NCBI RefSeq assembly: GCF_003018115.1
Contig: NZ_CP027457.1
Length of the DNA stretch: 64,000 nt
Strand: one strand, 5' to 3'
From: Escherichia coli
GTDB lineage: Bacteria > Pseudomonadota > Gammaproteobacteria > Enterobacterales > Enterobacteriaceae
This document shows positions 18,847 to 58,466 of this stretch, piece by piece. Numbering within the stretch: position 1 is the stretch's first letter; each line of letters opens with the position of its first letter. The notes under the pieces were generated by a model. It did no database searches. It was not told the origin of the DNA and saw only the letters and a list, made by a program, of their open reading frames with translations. A program made the position numbers and the translations under genes.

Positions 18847-18896
18847 TCAGCCCGGTCTTGTAGGCCTGATAAGACACGTGAGCGTCGCATCAGGCA
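18847..18896. repeat. REP element between cysI and cysH
   Basis: gcccggtcttgtaggcctgataagacacgtgagcgtcgcatcaggcaag. Confidence 0.75.
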
Positions 18897-18916: not shown

Positions 18917-19651
18917 ATGTCCAAACTCGATCTAAACGCCCTGAACGAACTGCCGAAGGTAGATCGCATTCTGGCGCTGGCGGAAACTAACGCCCAACTG
19001 GAAAAACTGGACGCTGAAGGCCGCGTAGCCTGGGCGCTGGATAATCTGCCCGGTGAATATGTGCTTTCTTCCAGCTTCGGCATTCAGGCGGCGGTGAGCC
19101 TGCATCTGGTGAATCAGATTCGCCCGGATATTCCAGTGATCCTCACCGATACCGGTTACTTGTTCCCGGAAACCTACCGCTTTATTGACGAGTTAACGGA
19201 CAAACTCAAGCTCAACCTGAAAGTGTACCGTGCTACCGAAAGCGCAGCCTGGCAGGAAGCACGCTACGGAAAACTGTGGGAGCAGGGCGTTGAAGGCATT
19301 GAAAAGTACAATGACATCAACAAAGTCGAACCGATGAACCGGGCGCTGAAAGAACTTAACGCGCAAACGTGGTTTGCTGGCCTGCGCCGCGAACAATCCG
19401 GCAGCCGCGCCAATTTACCGGTGCTGGCAATTCAGCGTGGCGTATTTAAAATGCTGCCGATTATCGACTGGGATAACCGAACGATATATCAGTATCTGCA
19501 AAAGCATGGCCTGAAATATCACCCATTATGGGACGAAGGATATTTATCGGTGGGCGATACCCATACAACCCGTAAATGGGAACCCGGCATGGCGGAAGAA
19601 GAAACGCGTTTCTTTGGCTTAAAAAGGGAATGTGGGTTACACGAAGGGTAA
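18917..19651 (+). CDS. cysH: Phosphoadenosine phosphosulfate (PAPS) reductase
   Basis: 244 aa from ATG 18917 (SD gagg; [12 protein letters not shown]...); ORF track start 18764 runs through the REP and is rejected. Confidence 0.93.
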
Positions 19652-32789: not shown

Positions 32790-33782
32790 ATGAGTCAGAA
32801 TACGCTGAAAGTTCATGATTTAAATGAAGATGCGGAATTTGATGAGAACGGAGTTGAGGTTTTTGACGAAAAGGCCTTAGTAGAAGAGGAACCCAGTGAT
32901 AACGATTTGGCCGAAGAGGAACTGTTATCGCAGGGAGCCACACAGCGTGTGTTGGACGCGACTCAGCTTTACCTTGGTGAGATTGGTTATTCACCACTGT
33001 TAACGGCCGAAGAAGAAGTTTATTTTGCGCGTCGCGCACTGCGTGGAGATGTCGCCTCTCGCCGCCGGATGATCGAGAGTAACTTGCGTCTGGTGGTAAA
33101 AATTGCCCGCCGTTATGGCAATCGTGGTCTGGCGTTGCTGGACCTTATCGAAGAGGGCAACCTGGGGCTGATCCGCGCGGTAGAGAAGTTTGACCCGGAA
33201 CGTGGTTTCCGCTTCTCAACATACGCAACCTGGTGGATTCGCCAGACGATTGAACGGGCGATTATGAACCAAACCCGTACTATTCGTTTGCCGATTCACA
33301 TCGTAAAGGAGCTGAACGTTTACCTGCGAACCGCACGTGAGTTGTCCCATAAGCTGGACCATGAACCAAGTGCGGAAGAGATCGCAGAGCAACTGGATAA
33401 GCCAGTTGATGACGTCAGCCGTATGCTTCGTCTTAACGAGCGCATTACCTCGGTAGACACCCCGCTGGGTGGTGATTCCGAAAAAGCGTTGCTGGACATC
33501 CTGGCCGATGAAAAAGAGAACGGTCCGGAAGATACCACGCAAGATGACGATATGAAGCAGAGCATCGTCAAATGGCTGTTCGAGCTGAACGCCAAACAGC
33601 GTGAAGTACTGGCACGTCGATTCGGTTTGCTGGGGTACGAAGCGGCAACACTGGAAGATGTAGGTCGTGAAATTGGCCTCACCCGTGAACGTGTTCGCCA
33701 GATTCAGGTTGAAGGCCTGCGCCGTTTGCGCGAAATCCTGCAAACGCAGGGGCTGAATATCGAAGCGCTGTTCCGCGAATAA
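32790..33782 (+). CDS. rpoS: RNA polymerase sigma factor sigma-S (sigma-38)
   Basis: 330 aa from ATG 32790 ([21 protein letters not shown]...); sigma-70 family regions 2-4. Confidence 0.97.
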
Positions 33783-33797
33783 GTAAGCATCTGTCAG

Positions 33798-33835
33798 AAA
33801 GGCCAGTCTCAAGCGAGGCTGGCCTTTTTCTTTTG
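33798..33835 (+). terminator. rpoS intrinsic terminator
   Basis: aaaggccag-tctcaagcgagg-ctggccttt followed by TTTTTCTTTT. Confidence 0.7.
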
Positions 33836-33901
33836 TTTAGGAAGCTTGTGTTTTTGTCGCCTGGATAAGACACGTCAGCGTCCTACCCGGCAATTTGCAT
33901 C

Positions 33902-34309
33902 CTATGTGTTCATCATCTTGCGCACCAGCTGCACAAACAGCTCCTGCTCTTCTGCACTCAAACGCCCCAAAAATTCCTCATCCACGCTGTCACCAATCGG
34001 TATCGCCGCAGCAAGTATCTTTTCTCCTTCGGCAGTCAGCCAGACAAAGCGTCGCCGCTTATCAGCGGCGTCATGTTCACGTCTGACTAAGCCACGATTC
34101 TCCATTCTTGCCAACATTTCTGCCAACGTTGCTTTGGTGCTGACTGCTGCTTCTATCAGTGCCACCTGTTCGATACCAGGCTTATCAGCAATGGCGCGCA
34201 TCACCGCATACTGTGGTTTGGTCAGGTCAGGTAACTCGTGCTGCCAGCGAGCCGTGTGCTGCTGAAAAAGTTGTCGTAACAGATGGAACGCTTTATTTCG
34301 TAACGCCAT
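33902..34309 (-). CDS. hosA: MarR/SlyA-family transcriptional regulator HosA
   Basis: 135 aa from Met 34309 (SD ggag 6 nt upstream); winged-helix MarR signature; divergent from ecdB. ORF track start 34342 is an alternative. Confidence 0.8.
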   Translation of the reverse strand: MALRNKAFHLLRQLFQQHTARWQHELPDLTKPQYAVMRAIADKPGIEQVALIEAAVSTKATLAEMLARMENRGLVRREHDAADKRRRFVWLTAEGEKILAAAIPIGDSVDEEFLGRLSAEEQELFVQLVRKMMNT

Positions 34310-34424
34310 GTAAACTCCGGGCAAACTATCTGCCGCTATCATAGCGGTTTTTCAGTGACGAAGGGGATGTTGTTACTTTTCAGTGCTTGCCGCAATGAGA
34401 ACAGAGGCGTATTTTAATAATAAC

Positions 34425-34438
34425 GTTCGTATACGAAC
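34425..34438. promoter_or_regulatory. Perfect 14-bp palindrome in the hosA-ecdB intergenic region (candidate HosA operator)
   Basis: gttcgtatacgaac, 18 bp upstream of the ecdB start. Confidence 0.45.
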
Positions 34439-34455
34439 AATTAAGAGAATAAGCA

Positions 34456-35049
34456 ATGAAACTGATCGTCGGGATGACAGGGGCTACCGGTGCGCCTCTT
34501 GGTGTGGCATTACTGCAAGCGCTGCGGGAGATGCCGAATGTCGAGACTCATCTGGTGATGTCGAAGTGGGCGAAAACCACCATTGAACTGGAAACGCCTT
34601 ACAGCGCTCGCGATGTTGCTGCCCTCGCAGACTTCAGCCATAACCCGGCGGATCAGGCGGCGACCATCTCCTCAGGTTCCTTTCGTACCGACGGCATGAT
34701 CGTTATTCCGTGCAGTATGAAAACGCTCGCCGGTATCCGCGCTGGTTACGCCGATGGCCTGGTAGGGCGCGCGGCGGACGTCGTGCTCAAAGAAGGCCGC
34801 AAACTGGTGCTGGTGCCGCGTGAAATGCCGCTTAGCACCATCCATCTCGAAAATATGCTCGCACTTTCACGCATGGGCGTGGCGATGGTGCCGCCGATGC
34901 CTGCCTTTTATAACCATCCCGAAACGGTAGATGACATTGTCCACCATGTGGTAGCCCGCGTGCTGGATCAATTTGGCCTCGAACATCCCCACGCCAGGCG
35001 CTGGCAAGGGTTGCCGCAGGCCCGGAATTTTTCTCAGGAGAATGAATAA
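34456..35049 (+). CDS. ecdB: UbiX-like flavin prenyltransferase (Pad1 / phenolic acid decarboxylase subunit B)
   Basis: 197 aa; MKLIVGMTGATGAPLGV flavoprotein motif. Confidence 0.88.
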   Translation: MKLIVGMTGATGAPLGVALLQALREMPNVETHLVMSKWAKTTIELETPYSARDVAALADFSHNPADQAATISSGSFRTDGMIVIPCSMKTLAGIRAGYADGLVGRAADVVLKEGRKLVLVPREMPLSTIHLENMLALSRMGVAMVPPMPAFYNHPETVDDIVHHVVARVLDQFGLEHPHARRWQGLPQARNFSQENE

Positions 35050-36476
35050 TGGCATTTGATGATTTACGCAGCTTTTTACAGGCGCTTGATGACCACGGCC
35101 AGTTACTGAAAATCAGCGAAGAGGTGAACGCGGAACCGGATCTGGCTGCCGCTGCCAACGCCACCGGGCGTATCGGCGATGGTGCACCGGCGCTGTGGTT
35201 TGATAATATTCGCGGCTTTACCGATGCCCGCGTGGCGATGAATACCATCGGTTCCTGGCAGAACCACGCGATTTCCCTCGGCCTGCCACCAAACACCCCG
35301 GTCAAAAAGCAGATTGATGAGTTTATCCGCCGCTGGGATAACTTCCCGATTGCCCCGGAGCGCCGCGCCAATCCTGCCTGGGCGCAGAACACCGTCGATG
35401 GTGACGAGATTAATCTGTTCGATATCCTGCCGCTGTTTCGTTTAAACGACGGTGATGGCGGTTTCTATCTCGACAAAGCCTGCGTGGTTTCCCGCGATCC
35501 GCTCGACCCAGATAACTTCGGCAAGCAGAACGTCGGCATCTACCGCATGGAAGTGAAGGGCAAGCGTAAGCTCGGCCTGCAACCGGTGCCGATGCACGAT
35601 ATCGCCCTGCATCTGCATAAAGCAGAAGAGCGCGGTGAAGATCTGCCGGTTGCGATCACGCTCGGTAACGATCCGATCATCACGCTGATGGGGGCCACGC
35701 CGCTGAAATACGATCAGTCTGAGTATGAAATGGCAGGCGCGCTGCGTGAAAGCCCGTACCCGATCGCCACCGCCCCGCTGACCGGTTTTGATGTGCCGTG
35801 GGGTTCAGAAGTGATCCTCGAAGGGGTCATCGAAAGCCGTAAACGCGAAATTGAAGGGCCGTTCGGTGAGTTTACCGGGCACTACTCCGGCGGGCGCAAC
35901 ATGACCGTGGTGCGCATCGATAAAGTCTCTTACCGCACCAGGCCGATTTTCGAATCGCTGTACCTCGGCATGCCGTGGACCGAAATCGACTACCTGATGG
36001 GGCCAGCCACCTGTGTGCCGCTGTATCAACAACTGAAAGCCGAGTTCCCGGAAGTGCAGGCAGTAAACGCCATGTACACCCACGGCCTGCTGGCGATTAT
36101 CTCCACCAAAAAACGCTACGGCGGCTTTGCCCGCGCGGTGGGCCTGCGTGCGATGACCACGCCGCACGGTCTGGGCTACGTAAAGATGGTGATTATGGTC
36201 GATGAAGACGTTGACCCGTTCAACCTGCCGCAGGTGATGTGGGCGCTCTCCTCGAAAGTAAATCCGGCAGGGGATTTGGTGCAGTTGCCGAATATGTCCG
36301 TGCTGGAACTCGACCCTGGCTCAAGCCCGGCGGGGATCACCGACAAGCTGATTATCGACGCCACCACGCCTGTCGCCCCGGACAACCGTGGCCACTACAG
36401 CCAGCCGGTGGTGGATTTGCCGGAAACCAAAGCCTGGGCTGAAAAGCTGACCGCTATGCTGGCCGCACGTAAATAA
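35049..36476 (+). CDS. ecdC: UbiD-family decarboxylase (phenolic acid decarboxylase subunit C)
   Basis: 475 aa; UbiD-family size and operon context with ecdB/ecdD. Confidence 0.85.
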   Translation: MAFDDLRSFLQALDDHGQLLKISEEVNAEPDLAAAANATGRIGDGAPALWFDNIRGFTDARVAMNTIGSWQNHAISLGLPPNTPVKKQIDEFIRRWDNFPIAPERRANPAWAQNTVDGDEINLFDILPLFRLNDGDGGFYLDKACVVSRDPLDPDNFGKQNVGIYRMEVKGKRKLGLQPVPMHDIALHLHKAEERGEDLPVAITLGNDPIITLMGATPLKYDQSEYEMAGALRESPYPIATAPLTGFDVPWGSEVILEGVIESRKREIEGPFGEFTGHYSGGRNMTVVRIDKVSYRTRPIFESLYLGMPWTEIDYLMGPATCVPLYQQLKAEFPEVQAVNAMYTHGLLAIISTKKRYGGFARAVGLRAMTTPHGLGYVKMVIMVDEDVDPFNLPQVMWALSSKVNPAGDLVQLPNMSVLELDPGSSPAGITDKLIIDATTPVAPDNRGHYSQPVVDLPETKAWAEKLTAMLAARK

Positions 36477-36486
36477 GGAGAACAAG

Positions 36487-36723
36487 ATGATTTGTCCACG
36501 TTGTGCCGATGAACAGATTGAAGTGATGGCGAAATCGCCGGTGAAAGATGTCTGGACGGTATATCAGTGCCAGCATTGCCTTTATACCTGGCGCGATACC
36601 GAACCGCTGCGCCGTACCAGCCGCGAACATTATCCCGAAGCGTTCCGCATGACGCAGAAAGATATTGATGACGCGCCAATGGTGCCGAGCATCCCGCCGC
36701 TGCTGGCGGAAGGTAAGCGCTAA
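36487..36723 (+). CDS. ecdD: Phenolic acid decarboxylase small subunit D (zinc-ribbon)
   Basis: 78 aa; CPRC...CQHC zinc-ribbon cysteines. Confidence 0.8.
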   Translation: MICPRCADEQIEVMAKSPVKDVWTVYQCQHCLYTWRDTEPLRRTSREHYPEAFRMTQKDIDDAPMVPSIPPLLAEGKR

Positions 36724-36726
36724 ATA

Positions 36727-36757
36727 AAAGGTCCGATGCTCATCGGACCTTTTTATT
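36727..36757. terminator. Bidirectional terminator between ecdD and ygbN
   Basis: aaaggtccgatg-ctc-atcggaccttt followed by TTATT; A-rich on the other side. Confidence 0.7.
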
Positions 36758-36761
36758 AAGG

Positions 36762-38126
36762 TCAAATTACCGCCCATACGCACCAGGTAATTAAGAATCC
36801 GGTAAAACCGAGAATGGTCGTTAACACTGTCCAGGTTTTCAGACCGTCTGCTACCGACAACCCCAGATATTTGGTCACAATCCAGAACCCTGAGTCATTA
36901 ATATGTGACGCCCCAAGCCCACCAAAGCAGGCTGCCAGCGTCACCAATACGCACTGAATCGGATTCAATCCCATCACCGCTTCTGAGAGTAACCCGCCGG
37001 TTGTCAGTATTGCTACGGTTGCTGACCCCTGCGATGCACGCAGCGCCAGTGAAATAATAAATGCGGCTGGTAACAGAGGCAGGTCAATCATTTGTAACAT
37101 GTTGGCAAGGGCTTTGCCGACGCCCGATTCCACCAGCACTTTGCCAAATACCCCTCCAGCACCAGTAACCAAAATCACTACCGCCGCAGTAGGAAGCGCT
37201 GAGCCCATAATGTCGCTGGTGTGTTGTAAGCTCCAGCCGCGACGTAAAGCCAATAACCAGAATGCCAGCACCAGCGCAATCATTAGAGCTACCATTGGTG
37301 AGCCGATCAGCTGTAGCGTACCAAGCAGGGGATGCGAAGGCGGCATCAGTGTTGCGGAAACCGTACCCGCCATGATAATCGCGATAGGAATAACAATTAG
37401 CGAGGTGACCAGCGCGACGCCCGGTGGATTTATTTTATCGCTTAATTTTGTCGCGCCTTCCTCACTGGCCGGAGCCAGTTGCATCTGTTCCAGTACTTCC
37501 ACCGACATCGCATATTGGCGCTTATTGATTATTTTCGCTGCAAAGTAGCCAACAATCCCTACGGGAATAGAAATCGCAATACCGATGATGGTTAGCCAGC
37601 CGATGTCTGCGTGGAGTAACCCCGCTGCGGCGACAGGGCCTGGATGCGGCGGTACCGCCACATGTACAGTTAGCATGATCCCAGCGACAGGCAGGCCAAA
37701 TTTGAGTGGCGATATTTTGGCAACCTTGGCAAAACCGTAAATGATTGGCGCAAGAATAATAAAGCCGACATCAAAGAAGACGGGAATACCGAGGAAGAAC
37801 GCTGCCAGAGTCAGCGCAGCGATAGTTCGTTTGTCACCTAACTTGCGACTGAAATAATTAGCCAGTGACTCTGCACCACCAGAGTGTTCGATCATACGCC
37901 CCAGCATAGCGCCCAGACCAATAATAATAGTGACGGAACCAAGCACACCGCCCATCCCGGCGATCATCACTTTACCCACTTCGCCCGCCGGTATACCCGC
38001 CGCAAGTGCGACTAACAGGCTGACGAGGAGCAGAGCAACGAATGGTTGTACCTTTGCCTTGATGACCAGCAGCAACAGCATGATTACGCCAGTTAACGCA
38101 ATGCATAACAATGTAATTGTGGACAT
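36762..38126 (-). CDS. ygbN: GntP-family permease
   Basis: 454 aa polytopic membrane protein; synteny with ygbJKLM. Confidence 0.88.
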   Translation of the reverse strand: MSTITLLCIALTGVIMLLLLVIKAKVQPFVALLLVSLLVALAAGIPAGEVGKVMIAGMGGVLGSVTIIIGLGAMLGRMIEHSGGAESLANYFSRKLGDKRTIAALTLAAFFLGIPVFFDVGFIILAPIIYGFAKVAKISPLKFGLPVAGIMLTVHVAVPPHPGPVAAAGLLHADIGWLTIIGIAISIPVGIVGYFAAKIINKRQYAMSVEVLEQMQLAPASEEGATKLSDKINPPGVALVTSLIVIPIAIIMAGTVSATLMPPSHPLLGTLQLIGSPMVALMIALVLAFWLLALRRGWSLQHTSDIMGSALPTAAVVILVTGAGGVFGKVLVESGVGKALANMLQMIDLPLLPAAFIISLALRASQGSATVAILTTGGLLSEAVMGLNPIQCVLVTLAACFGGLGASHINDSGFWIVTKYLGLSVADGLKTWTVLTTILGFTGFLITWCVWAVI

Positions 38127-56756: not shown

Positions 56757-58466
56757 ATGTCTGAAGAAAAATTAGGTCAACATTATCTCGCCGCGCTGAA
56801 TGAGGCATTTCCGGGCGTCGTGCTGGACCACGCCTGGCAGACCAAAGATCAGCTGACTGTCACCGTAAAGGTGAACTATCTGCCGGAAGTAGTGGAGTTT
56901 CTCTACTACAAGCAGGGGGGCTGGCTGTCGGTGCTTTTTGGTAACGACGAACGCAAACTGAATGGTCATTACGCCGTTTATTACGTGCTGTCGATGGAGA
57001 AGGGGACTAAGTGCTGGGTAACGGTTCGCGTCGAAGTTGATGCCAACAAACCGGAGTATCCGTCCGTGACGCCGCGCGTTCCGGCGGCGGTGTGGGGCGA
57101 GCGCGAAGTGCGCGATATGTACGGTTTGATTCCGGTTGGTCTGCCGGATGAACGCCGTCTGGTGCTGCCGGATGACTGGCCGGATGAACTTTATCCGCTG
57201 CGTAAAGACAGCATGGATTATCGTCAGCGTCCGGCACCGACCACCGATGCTGAAACCTACGAGTTCATCAACGAACTGGGCGACAAGAAAAACAACGTCG
57301 TGCCGATTGGTCCGTTGCACGTCACTTCCGACGAACCGGGTCACTTCCGTCTGTTCGTCGATGGCGAAAACATTATCGACGCCGACTACCGTCTGTTCTA
57401 CGTCCATCGCGGCATGGAAAAACTGGCGGAAACCCGCATGGGTTATAACGAAGTGACCTTCCTCTCTGACCGTGTGTGCGGGATCTGCGGCTTTGCTCAC
57501 AGCACCGCCTACACCACGTCGGTGGAAAACGCGATGGGTATTCAGGTGCCAGAACGTGCGCAGATGATCCGCGCCATTCTGCTGGAGGTGGAACGCCTGC
57601 ACTCGCATCTGCTCAACCTCGGTCTTGCCTGCCACTTTACCGGCTTTGACTCCGGCTTTATGCAGTTCTTCCGCGTGCGTGAAACCTCCATGAAAATGGC
57701 GGAGATCCTTACTGGTGCGCGTAAAACCTACGGCCTGAACCTGATCGGCGGGATTCGTCGCGATCTGCTGAAAGATGACATGATCCAGACCCGCCAGCTG
57801 GCGCAACAGATGCGTCGTGAAGTGCAGGAGCTGGTGGATGTGCTGCTGAGTACGCCGAACATGGAACAGCGCACTGTCGGCATTGGTCGTCTGGACCCGG
57901 AAATCGCTCGCGACTTCAGTAACGTTGGCCCGATGGTCCGCGCCAGCGGTCACGCCCGCGATACCCGCGCAGATCACCCATTTGTCGGCTATGGCCTGCT
58001 GCCAATGGAAGTCCACAGCGAGCAGGGCTGCGACGTTATTTCCCGTCTGAAAGTGCGTATCAACGAAGTCTATACCGCGCTGAACATGATCGACTACGGT
58101 CTGGATAACCTGCCGGGTGGCCCACTGATGGTGGAAGGCTTTACCTACATTCCGCACCGCTTTGCGCTGGGCTTTGCCGAAGCGCCGCGCGGCGACGATA
58201 TCCACTGGAGCATGACCGGCGACAACCAGAAGCTGTACCGCTGGCGCTGCCGTGCCGCGACCTACGCGAACTGGCCGACCCTGCGCTACATGCTGCGTGG
58301 CAATACCGTTTCCGATGCGCCGCTGATTATCGGTAGCCTCGACCCTTGCTACTCCTGTACCGACCGCATGACCGTGGTCGATGTGCGTAAGAAGAAGAGC
58401 AAAGTGGTGCCGTACAAAGAACTCGAGCGTTACAGCATTGAGCGTAAAAACTCGCCGCTGAAATAA
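56757..58466 (+). CDS. hycE: Hydrogenase 3 large subunit ([NiFe], NuoC/D-like)
   Basis: 569 aa from ATG 56757; NiFe-binding CxxC motifs (RVCGICGFAH; C-terminal DPCYSCTDR). Confidence 0.95.
   Translation: MSEEKLGQHYLAALNEAFPGVVLDHAWQTKDQLTVTVKVNYLPEVVEFLYYKQGGWLSVLFGNDERKLNGHYAVYYVLSMEKGTKCWVTVRVEVDANKPEYPSVTPRVPAAVWGEREVRDMYGLIPVGLPDERRLVLPDDWPDELYPLRKDSMDYRQRPAPTTDAETYEFINELGDKKNNVVPIGPLHVTSDEPGHFRLFVDGENIIDADYRLFYVHRGMEKLAETRMGYNEVTFLSDRVCGICGFAHSTAYTTSVENAMGIQVPERAQMIRAILLEVERLHSHLLNLGLACHFTGFDSGFMQFFRVRETSMKMAEILTGARKTYGLNLIGGIRRDLLKDDMIQTRQLAQQMRREVQELVDVLLSTPNMEQRTVGIGRLDPEIARDFSNVGPMVRASGHARDTRADHPFVGYGLLPMEVHSEQGCDVISRLKVRINEVYTALNMIDYGLDNLPGGPLMVEGFTYIPHRFALGFAEAPRGDDIHWSMTGDNQKLYRWRCRAATYANWPTLRYMLRGNTVSDAPLIIGSLDPCYSCTDRMTVVDVRKKKSKVVPYKELERYSIERKNSPLK

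Follow-up and report, generated by a model that had tools for sequence, protein, structure and literature searches.

The hosA–ecdBCD module between rpoS and ygbN in Escherichia coli: its HosA operator, its decarboxylase genes and its absence from K-12

The interval between rpoS and ygbN in the window (the whole stretch of E. coli DNA analyzed, 64 000 nucleotides) carries the hosA–ecdBCD module of the mutS–rpoS polymorphic region in its pattern IV form; aliases of the same genes are slyA or kpdR with kpdBCD, and pad1–yclC. Taken jointly with the readings of enzyme, switch and origin set out below, we regard this identification as very likely. Publications already cover the locus and its polymorphism, the repressor with its operator and inducer, and the protein structures. 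The interpretation given in the initial annotation of this DNA is therefore correct but ordinary, since the genes have been characterized and the palindrome that it singled out is the published HosA site. As a discovery the locus carries little weight, and the HosA–operator pair is a standard part in 4-hydroxybenzoate (4-HBA) biosensors. What the comparison of 80 species adds is a footprint of conserved −35, −10 and operator half-sites, indications of an ancestral cluster, and a second HosA-like box in other genera.

Genes of the rpoS–ygbN interval

The features of the interval, in window positions, are the following.

32790–33782, plus strand: rpoS, left flanking gene; open reading frame, with rpoS annotated at the equivalent position in K-12 and other genomes
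33796–33829, plus strand: rpoS intrinsic terminator; 15-pair stem followed by a T-run, fold −24.5 kcal/mol, z = −6.3
33830–36724, no strand: segment of about 2.9 kb present here and absent from K-12; junction comparison and MG1655 annotation
33858–33891, minus strand: degenerate REP-like element immediately 3′ to the stop codon of hosA; hairpin in the sense of the hosA transcript
33902–34309, minus strand: hosA, MarR-family repressor, 135 aa; Pfam MarR and PDB 8aga
34338–34343, minus strand: putative hosA −10 element, TATGAT; within the inverted repeat 34332–34348
34387–34392, plus strand: putative −35 element of the ecdBCD promoter, TTGCCG; cross-genus alignment, 17 bp before the −10
34410–34415, plus strand: putative −10 element of the ecdBCD promoter, TATTTT; T, A and final T invariant across genera
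34425–34438, no strand: HosA operator O1, GTTCGTATACGAAC; half-sites GTTCG-N4-CGAAC, exact match
34456–35049, plus strand: ecdB (pad1), UbiX-type flavin prenyltransferase; NCBIfam VdcB, UbiX TIGR00421 and PDB 1sbz
35049–36476, plus strand: ecdC (yclC), UbiD-family catalytic subunit; NCBIfam VdcC and PDB 7ae4_A
36487–36723, plus strand: ecdD, zinc-ribbon activator subunit, 78 aa; NCBIfam VdcD and PDB 7ae4_a ShdD
36726–36753, no strand: hairpin terminator common to the convergent ecdD and ygbN; fold −16.6 kcal/mol, z = −5.6
36762–38126, minus strand: ygbN (o454), GntP-family transporter, right flanking gene; NCBIfam NF007332, 827.5 against a cut-off of 524; ygbN in K-12

The start codon of ecdC overlaps the stop codon of ecdB (TAATG). 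A scan of 33600–36900 against Rfam revealed no known RNA element, the sub-threshold matches being to two terminator hairpins, with one chance match. The gene identities were computed here, as were the sequence and conservation of the operator, the distribution of the segment and its absence from K-12.

The MarR/SlyA-type regulator that the initial annotation placed divergent from ecdB is HosA. Its product scores 47.6 against a cut-off of 24.6 for Pfam PF01047 (MarR) and 42.1 against 27 for PF12802, and its residues 1–135 align with residues 1–135 of PDB 8aga, ‘Transcriptional regulator HosA’ (E = 2.5e-83). The gene is divergent from ecdBCD with a palindromic operator in between, which is the layout of a HosA orthologue, and in other strains PGAP annotates a 408-bp MarR-family CDS, equal in length to the hosA reading frame, between rpoS and ecdB. 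We rejected a 146-aa reading frame beginning at 34342 in favour of the 135-aa one from 34309, whose start agrees with the PDB chain and with the PGAP annotation, as well as with the CAT and GGAG that are conserved in the alignment. PcaV of Streptomyces coelicolor (PDB 4fht, E = 5.3e-17), a MarR-family protocatechuate-responsive repressor, is one of three solved MarR structures that are almost level as the closest ones after HosA itself. Like HosA, it represses an aromatic catabolic operon and is released by a hydroxybenzoate-type ligand, but ligand, operator and target pathway are different, and it is a distant paralogue rather than an orthologue.

The three genes on the other side of the spacer, described from the outset as UbiX-like, UbiD-family and small-subunit genes, all score above the curated NCBIfam thresholds for the B, C and D subunits of non-oxidative hydroxyarylic acid decarboxylases (HAD). 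EcdB scores 312.2 against 290 for VdcB (NF041206) and 246 against 108.9 for UbiX (TIGR00421), and matches PDB 1sbz over its full length (E = 1.6e-129). EcdC scores 790.2 against 650 for VdcC (NF041204), contains UbiD_N, UbiD and UbiD_C domains, and matches ShdC (PDB 7ae4_A) with E = 2.9e-160. Its catalytic Glu-Arg-Glu (ERE) triad is present, with R166 in GIYRMEV and the glutamates in E269-GPFG-E274. We take R166, E269 and E274 to correspond to R173, E277 and E282 of Fdc1. The ERE motif is named in PMC8379154. EcdD scores 121.2 against 30 for VdcD (NF041205) and matches ShdD (PDB 7ae4_a) with E = 3.4e-11; its two CXXC knuckles place cysteines 3, 6, 28 and 31 at the positions of the zinc ligands of ShVdcD (PMC8379154), bearing out the description of the small subunit as a zinc ribbon. 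Crystal structures exist for HosA (8aga), EcdB/Pad1 (1sbz) and the homologous C/D complex ShdC/ShdD (7ae4).

In the proposed working of the module EcdB would make the prenylated FMN (prFMN) cofactor, with which EcdC would carry out the reversible, oxygen-free decarboxylation of 4-HBA and related hydroxyarylic acids, while the zinc-ribbon subunit EcdD would keep EcdC in its active state. The VdcBCD, BsdBCD and ShdBCD systems of Streptomyces, Bacillus subtilis and Sedimentibacter hydroxybenzoicus have the same B–C–D order of UbiX, UbiD and zinc-ribbon subunits (PMC8379154), and share with EcdBCD both the ERE motif and the four cysteines that bind zinc. They differ in being Gram-positive homologues that are not regulated by HosA, and their D subunits are more divergent than the C subunits.

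Family membership and inducer specificity suggest that the substrate of EcdBCD here is 4-HBA. Members of the family take several substrates and act reversibly (PMC8379154; PMC5779730), so that the physiological substrate might instead be a different hydroxyarylic acid, for instance vanillate or protocatechuate, or the enzyme might act mainly as a phenol carboxylase. We think this unlikely, given that HosA responds specifically to 4-HBA but not to its close analogues (PMC6694116), that the operon is reported as 4-HBA-induced in the summary provided by bioRxiv 10.1101/2024.04.24.590444, and that the closest solved homologue decarboxylates 4-HBA (PMC8379154).

The operator and promoters of the hosA–ecdB spacer

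The 146-bp spacer between hosA and ecdB contains the perfect palindrome GTTCGTATACGAAC (O1), which lies at 34425–34438, 17 bp before the start codon of ecdB. Its proposed role as HosA operator is upheld by its identity with the published 14-bp HosA site, as relayed in PMC6261655 and bioRxiv 10.1101/2024.04.24.590444. The site was reported by Roy & Ranjan (Biochemistry 2016) and reused in PMC6261655; according to the summary of that work in the bioRxiv article, transcription starts upstream of the site, and the operon is under repression and inducible by 4-HBA. The start position and the footprint are taken second-hand, because we know them through papers that reuse or summarize Roy & Ranjan. 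The biosensor oligonucleotides used for EMSA and BLI carry the window flanks 34402–34424 and 34439–34453 around the box (PMC6261655, Table S1). The exact 14-mer stands in just one oligonucleotide of that table; as machine-read, the table has GTTTCGTATACGAAC for the box on each of the two strands, a reading that cannot hold literally for both, and most rows have an extra T. A full-text literature search with the exact 14-mer gave no match, the sequence being found only in the supplementary oligonucleotide table.

Could the palindrome be something other than a HosA operator? A perfect palindrome of 14 bp is not rare; the window has two, against a mean of 3.8 in shuffled sequence, which is about the chance rate, although for a 146-bp spacer the expectation is only ~0.008. 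What gives the palindrome its weight is where it lies, how well it is conserved and the published binding data. A terminator scan flags, on the minus strand (34439–34424), a six-pair stem followed by a T-rich tail, as it might if the element were a weak terminator-like hairpin. Yet the stem comprises merely 5–6 pairs and lies between promoter and ribosome-binding site. In 80 of 80 species the palindrome holds this position, with at most two mismatches and usually 15–21 bp before the ecdB ATG. Its half-sites are invariant and its centre varies, as in a site bound by a protein and unlike a hairpin. The protein could in principle be another regulator, e.g. SlyA, but purified HosA has been studied on this sequence by EMSA, BLI and ligand-release assays (PMC6261655; PMC6694116), and a direct HosA footprint on 34425–34438 together with loss of repression on mutation of the half-sites is, by those second-hand accounts, already in the literature. 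A chance palindrome, a hairpin or a site for another regulator is thus extremely improbable, and we retain the assignment of O1 as the HosA operator.

O1 is also invariant among divergent E. coli alleles of the spacer that are only ~88% identical. The allele in the window is a rare one, with 25 of 5426 genomes at least 99% identical to it, but its operator and promoter hexamers are unchanged. Within the window the search for further HosA boxes gave only a three-mismatch match at 57263, at the level of chance.

HosA binds 4-HBA with a Kd of 4.74 µM measured by ITC, and its binding to DNA and its release by 4-HBA have been followed by EMSA and BLI (PMC6261655). In the switch that we propose, a HosA dimer would sit on the single operator GTTCG-N4-CGAAC, a short way past the point where ecdB transcription starts, and block RNA polymerase; on binding 4-HBA it would leave the DNA, and the operon would be turned on. 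For this scheme the binding of HosA, its response to 4-HBA and the position of the site relative to the start are drawn from the literature.

A simple σ70 consensus scan of the hosA–ecdB spacer called no promoter at the scan threshold, and the promoter assignment rests instead on the cross-genus footprint. Against a mean column identity of 66%, the alignment contains invariant TTG, TA...T and GTTCG/CGAAC blocks. The TTG of the −35 is invariant between genera, and the full TTGCCG is invariant across the E. coli spacer alleles. The ecdBCD promoter is accordingly placed at TTGCCG-N17-TATTTT as a prediction; with the −10 at 34410–34415 transcription would start at about 34422, which agrees with the published location of the HosA site downstream of the start, as summarized in the later papers. 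For hosA, 17 genera or species share a ATCATAGC block with hardly any variation, from which we propose a putative −10 element TATGAT at 34338–34343 on the minus strand.

One observation sits uneasily with this scheme: autorepression of hosA has been reported, yet the single operator is ~80 bp from the putative hosA −10.

Outside Escherichia the spacer has a further element. In Klebsiella, Enterobacter, Kluyvera, Lelliottia, Leclercia, Pseudocitrobacter and Pluralibacter there is a second HosA-like box, GATCGTRTACGAAC, with an invariant right half-site. Its distance upstream of O1 is fixed at 56–57 bp, and ~4 bp separate it from the −35 element. In Escherichia, whose spacer is ~25 bp shorter, this box is missing, and so is the TTTTAA block, a candidate for the −35 of hosA in the other genera. 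Should HosA bind the second box, the ancestral switch might have comprised two operators governing both divergent promoters, of which E. coli would have a reduced, single-operator version with altered autoregulation of hosA. We offer this tentatively, and the balance of probability lies somewhat against it.

Distribution of the segment and its relation to K-12

The rpoS–ygbN interval is indeed polymorphic in E. coli, and K-12 lacks the genes, as the initial annotation said. At least 80% of the segment is present in 2380 of 5426 complete E. coli genomes. K-12 MG1655 has rpoS, 93 bp and ygbN, with none of hosA, ecdB, ecdC and ecdD. Homology with K-12 stops at ~33829 (only bases 1–46 of the query match, i.e. 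33783–33828) and resumes at ~36724, and in place of 33830–36724 K-12 has the 9 bp CTGTGCACA.

Patterns I–IV have been described for this mutS–rpoS (o454–nlpD) region (PMC4209514). The window has the order of pattern IV, the E2348/69 type, namely ygbN (o454), kpdD-C-B, slyA (hosA), rpoS, and we found no difference from it. K-12 is pattern II. O157:H7 is pattern I, in which the cluster is present and ygbN missing, while B2 strains have pattern III, with a flavodoxin and an MBL hydrolase instead of the cluster. The HosA/HAD operon of E. coli UMN026, as described in Roy & Ranjan (2016) and relayed in PMC6261655 and PMC6694116, has the same genes, divergent layout, mutS–rpoS location and 14-bp operator with identical flanks, and differs from the window in allelic differences only.

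How did K-12 come to lack the segment? The term ‘island’ in the initial annotation would imply acquisition. The cluster adjoins rpoS in 66 of 80 species (Enterobacteriaceae and Rahnella), in 39 of them with exactly the arrangement of the window, including E. albertii and E. whittamii; the median identity of RpoS in this comparison is 98.8%. This synteny points to an ancestral segment beside rpoS that was deleted in K-12, and K-12 would then represent a deletion between two terminators and not an empty insertion site. The module would be ancestral beside rpoS in the Enterobacteriaceae, and its loss from K-12 would have ended at the rpoS terminator and the ecdD/ygbN terminator.

The opposite direction, with a pathogen-associated island acquired horizontally between rpoS and ygbN and K-12 as the ancestral empty site, has been argued as horizontal acquisition in bioRxiv 10.1101/2024.04.24.590444. 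It would accommodate the patchy distribution within E. coli, the mild excess of GC in ecdB and ecdC (0.58 compared with a window mean of 0.52), and the unusually high similarity of EcdC across genera, with a median amino-acid identity of 96%. However, we found no integrase or transposase genes, tRNA or flanking direct repeats at the locus, and the segment is present in many commensal and animal isolates. The conserved adjacency to rpoS also speaks against acquisition, and the K-12 spacer keeps the ecdD/ygbN hairpin terminator and has nine bases of unrelated sequence where the two ends meet, the kind of scar that a deletion would leave. We therefore consider acquisition to be quite improbable, and prefer deletion of an ancestral segment.

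A REP-like sequence is present at the rpoS side, as the initial annotation noted, although at 33858–33891 and not 33846–33880; it lies ~28 bp inside the segment and not at the junction itself. The right arm and GTAGG tail are degenerate, with ~5 mismatches and one indel over 33 nt. Its core 19-mer GATAAGACACGTCAGCGTC recurs with one mismatch in a canonical REP at 18859–18895, for which a pattern search in the window would give 0.03 matches by chance. Its alignment with the Z2-type REP consensus scores 31 against a shuffle maximum of 21, and on the minus strand, the sense of hosA, it folds with −21.5 kcal/mol (z = −4.3).

The rpoS–ygbN interval and its products

Reading the open reading frames of the window bears out the gene arrangement proposed for this interval in the initial annotation.

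Features of the rpoS–ygbN interval
rpoS, plus strand, left flank, ending at 33782
33796-33829, plus strand, strong rpoS terminator hairpin (-24.5 kcal/mol, z = -6.3)
33902-34309, minus strand, hosA (135 aa)
34310-34455, hosA–ecdB spacer (146 bp)
34425-34438, palindrome GTTCGTATACGAAC (O1), ending 17 bp ahead of the ecdB ATG
34456-35049, plus strand, ecdB
35049-36476, plus strand, ecdC, its start overlapping the ecdB stop
36487-36723, plus strand, ecdD
36726-36753, hairpin common to ecdD and the convergent ygbN
36762-38126, ygbN, convergent with ecdD

All four products exceed curated thresholds, and the four families assigned to them from the sequence are upheld. The MarR/SlyA-type regulator HosA scores 47.6 with the Pfam MarR domain against a cut-off of 24.6, and aligns along its full length with PDB 8aga, ‘Transcriptional regulator HosA’ (E = 2.5e-83). 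The UbiX-like prenyltransferase EcdB scores 312 with the VdcB model, against 290, and also passes UbiX models; it has a full-length match to the O157:H7 Pad1 structure 1sbz (E = 1.6e-129). EcdC is a UbiD-family decarboxylase, scoring 790 against 650 with the VdcC model, containing all three UbiD domains and matching the Sedimentibacter decarboxylase 7ae4_A (E = 2.9e-160). It retains R166 and E269-GPFG-E274, the ERE triad of the family, which presumably correspond to the Fdc1 residues. The small zinc-ribbon subunit EcdD (VdcD model 121 against 30; match to ShdD) has cysteines 3, 6, 28 and 31 at the zinc-coordinating positions of ShVdcD, described as a zinc-ribbon allosteric activator without which VdcC does not act on vanillate and 4-hydroxybenzoate (PMC8379154). 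We infer that 4-hydroxybenzoate (4-HBA) is the substrate of the EcdBCD enzyme of the window.

The initial observation is confirmed and its interpretation supported. The protein identities, the operator and ligand-released repression are each seen in sequence or published, the latter two being already established in the literature, and the hosA–ecdBCD system as a whole is already known.

The HosA operator and its surroundings

On its own the O1 palindrome is not beyond chance within the window. The 64 kb contain just two perfect 14-bp palindromes, O1 and AGAAACGCGTTTCT at 19600-19613, against a shuffle mean of 3.8, while 0.008 are expected in the 146-bp spacer. The significance of O1 comes from its position in the spacer, its conservation and published experiment. 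For HosA of E. coli UMN026 the recognition site is a palindrome of 14 bp, as studied by EMSA, nick-tolerant BLI kinetics and release by 4-HBA, a ligand with an ITC Kd of 4.74 uM (PMC6261655). The oligonucleotides tabulated there have the form CAGAGGCGTATTTTAATAATAAC-[box]-AATTAAGAGAATAA, with flanks identical to window 34402-34424 and 34439-34452, and one carries the exact O1 14-mer; the palindrome suspected of being the HosA operator is the published site. Most rows of the table give the box as GTTTCG... on both strands, which we regard as an artefact of typesetting or machine reading. Roy and Ranjan (Biochemistry 2016) are credited in both PMC6261655 and PMC6694116. As summarised in a structural preprint (bioRxiv 10.1101/2024.04.24.590444), they place the HosA-bound palindrome downstream of the operon transcription start, with HosA repressing the operon and itself and being released by 4-HBA.

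We scanned one genome per species and found hosA relatives in 80 loci, in genera including Escherichia, Citrobacter, Salmonella, Klebsiella, Enterobacter, Kluyvera, Kosakonia, Lelliottia, Leclercia, Phytobacter, Atlantibacter and Rahnella. The O1 box is present with at most two mismatches in 80/80, usually 15-21 bp ahead of the start codon, and nearly all its variation falls in the central four bases. Everywhere hosA is divergent from ecdB, except for six loci where it is directly divergent from ecdC. In these six species (loci L053, L063, L069, L073, L078 and L081; Pluralibacter, Superficieibacter, Cedecea and some Rahnella) ecdC-ecdD directly follow hosA without ecdB, and their clusters presumably draw prFMN from the housekeeping UbiX.

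An alignment of 17 spacers has a mean column identity of 66%, with TTG (34387-34389), T-A-...-T (34410-34415) and GTTCG/CGAAC invariant. Because of these blocks, the ecdBCD promoter would be TTGCCG-N17-TATTTT with a start near 34422, so that O1 would span about +3 to +17, in agreement with the published downstream position. Just upstream of hosA lies an inverted repeat, GCCGCTATCATAGCGGT (34332-34348), whose core ATCATAGC is near-invariant across genera in the same alignment. This block probably holds the hosA -10 element (TATGAT, minus strand, 34338-34343); alternatively, the repeat could bind another factor. O1 is about 80 bp from the putative hosA -10, and hosA autorepression has been reported.

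In Klebsiella, Enterobacter, Kluyvera, Lelliottia, Leclercia, Pseudocitrobacter and Pluralibacter (L008, L013, L029, L042 and other loci) the spacer carries a second HosA-like box, GATCGTRTACGAAC, with 1-3 mismatches and an invariant right half-site. This box is fixed 56-57 bp upstream of O1, abutting the -35 element and ~73-77 bp ahead of the ecdB ATG. It was not found in the spacers of Escherichia (window 34310-34455 included), Citrobacter, Salmonella, Kosakonia or Atlantibacter; the Escherichia spacer is ~25 bp shorter.

Among E. coli genomes the spacer varies far more than the genes on either side. In 1205 genomes 34310-34455 is only 80-90% identical to the window allele, which is found at ≥99% identity in only 25; the full-length matches listed, by contrast, are at least ~95% identical over the whole segment. 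The operator and -35 element are fixed across the spacer alleles, and the -10 mostly so.

Distribution and origin of the segment

Among 5426 complete E. coli genomes, 2380 carry the segment at ≥80% coverage, chromosomal every time. The interval is polymorphic as stated in the initial annotation, and K-12 does lack the genes: MG1655 has rpoS, 93 bp and ygbN. In an ST131 (B2) genome the same slot holds genes for a flavodoxin and an MBL hydrolase. This polymorphism is the long-known mutS-rpoS / o454-nlpD mosaic, whose patterns I-IV are defined in PMC4209514; the window has the gene order of pattern IV (ygbN, kpdD-C-B, slyA, rpoS, as in E2348/69).

K-12 homology ends with the rpoS terminator (~33829) and restarts where the ecdD/ygbN hairpin begins (~36724), nine unrelated bases, CTGTGCACA, replacing the segment. 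Intrinsic terminator hairpins lie at both deletion ends (33796-33829; 36724-36757), and O157:H7 homology likewise stops inside the ecdD/ygbN hairpin, at ~36735. This suggests that the hairpins are recurrent rearrangement end points in the mosaic.

The label ‘island’ would imply acquisition. The cluster lies ≤3 kb from rpoS in 66/80 species, in 39 of which hosA converges on rpoS across a gap of <300 bp as in the window; in six species it is inverted. Neither mobility genes nor junction repeats were found at the segment among the window ORFs and in the junction comparison, and GC content is only mildly raised (0.557 against 0.522). The simplest reading is that the segment is ancestral and was deleted in the K-12 lineage, a direction that we infer, and recent acquisition is disfavoured. 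Such a reading contradicts the claim that EPEC hosA was horizontally acquired from Shigella dysenteriae Sd197 (bioRxiv 10.1101/2024.04.24.590444).

The REP-like sequence placed at the rpoS-side boundary is real, but lies ~28 bp inside the segment and not at the junction. Positions 33858-33891 have a 19-mer in common with the canonical REP at 18859-18895 with one mismatch (0.03 expected), and align better than any of 500 shuffles to the Z2-type REP consensus. The distal arm is degenerate. Read in the sense of the hosA transcript, the element folds into a hairpin with G·U pairs (-21.5 kcal/mol) directly after the stop codon. A similar degenerate remnant with a ...CGGCAAT end lies beside the flavodoxin gene, the first of the replacement segment (flavodoxin and MBL hydrolase), in the ST131 B2 variant (L002 6090-6170). 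There is a hint that the REP is older than the divergence of the alternative segments.

The module is disrupted in individual strains, NZ_OZ547461.1 (H1/H55) and NZ_CP074726.1 (H14); one disrupted genome has IS2 inserted inside it, and another retains only the last 18%, with ecdD and a ‘hypothetical protein’. Locus L088 (NZ_CP032145.1 3125541-3128621) is a second, partial copy between IS26 and IS10A, adjoining a class 1 integron integrase gene; it consists of ecdB, a truncated ecdC and the half of the spacer that has the promoter and operator. In O157:H7 strain M1300706001A (L087 1-73) the annotation lists the rpoS beside the module as a pseudogene owing to an internal stop, one case of the loss of rpoS function that is well known in natural isolates.
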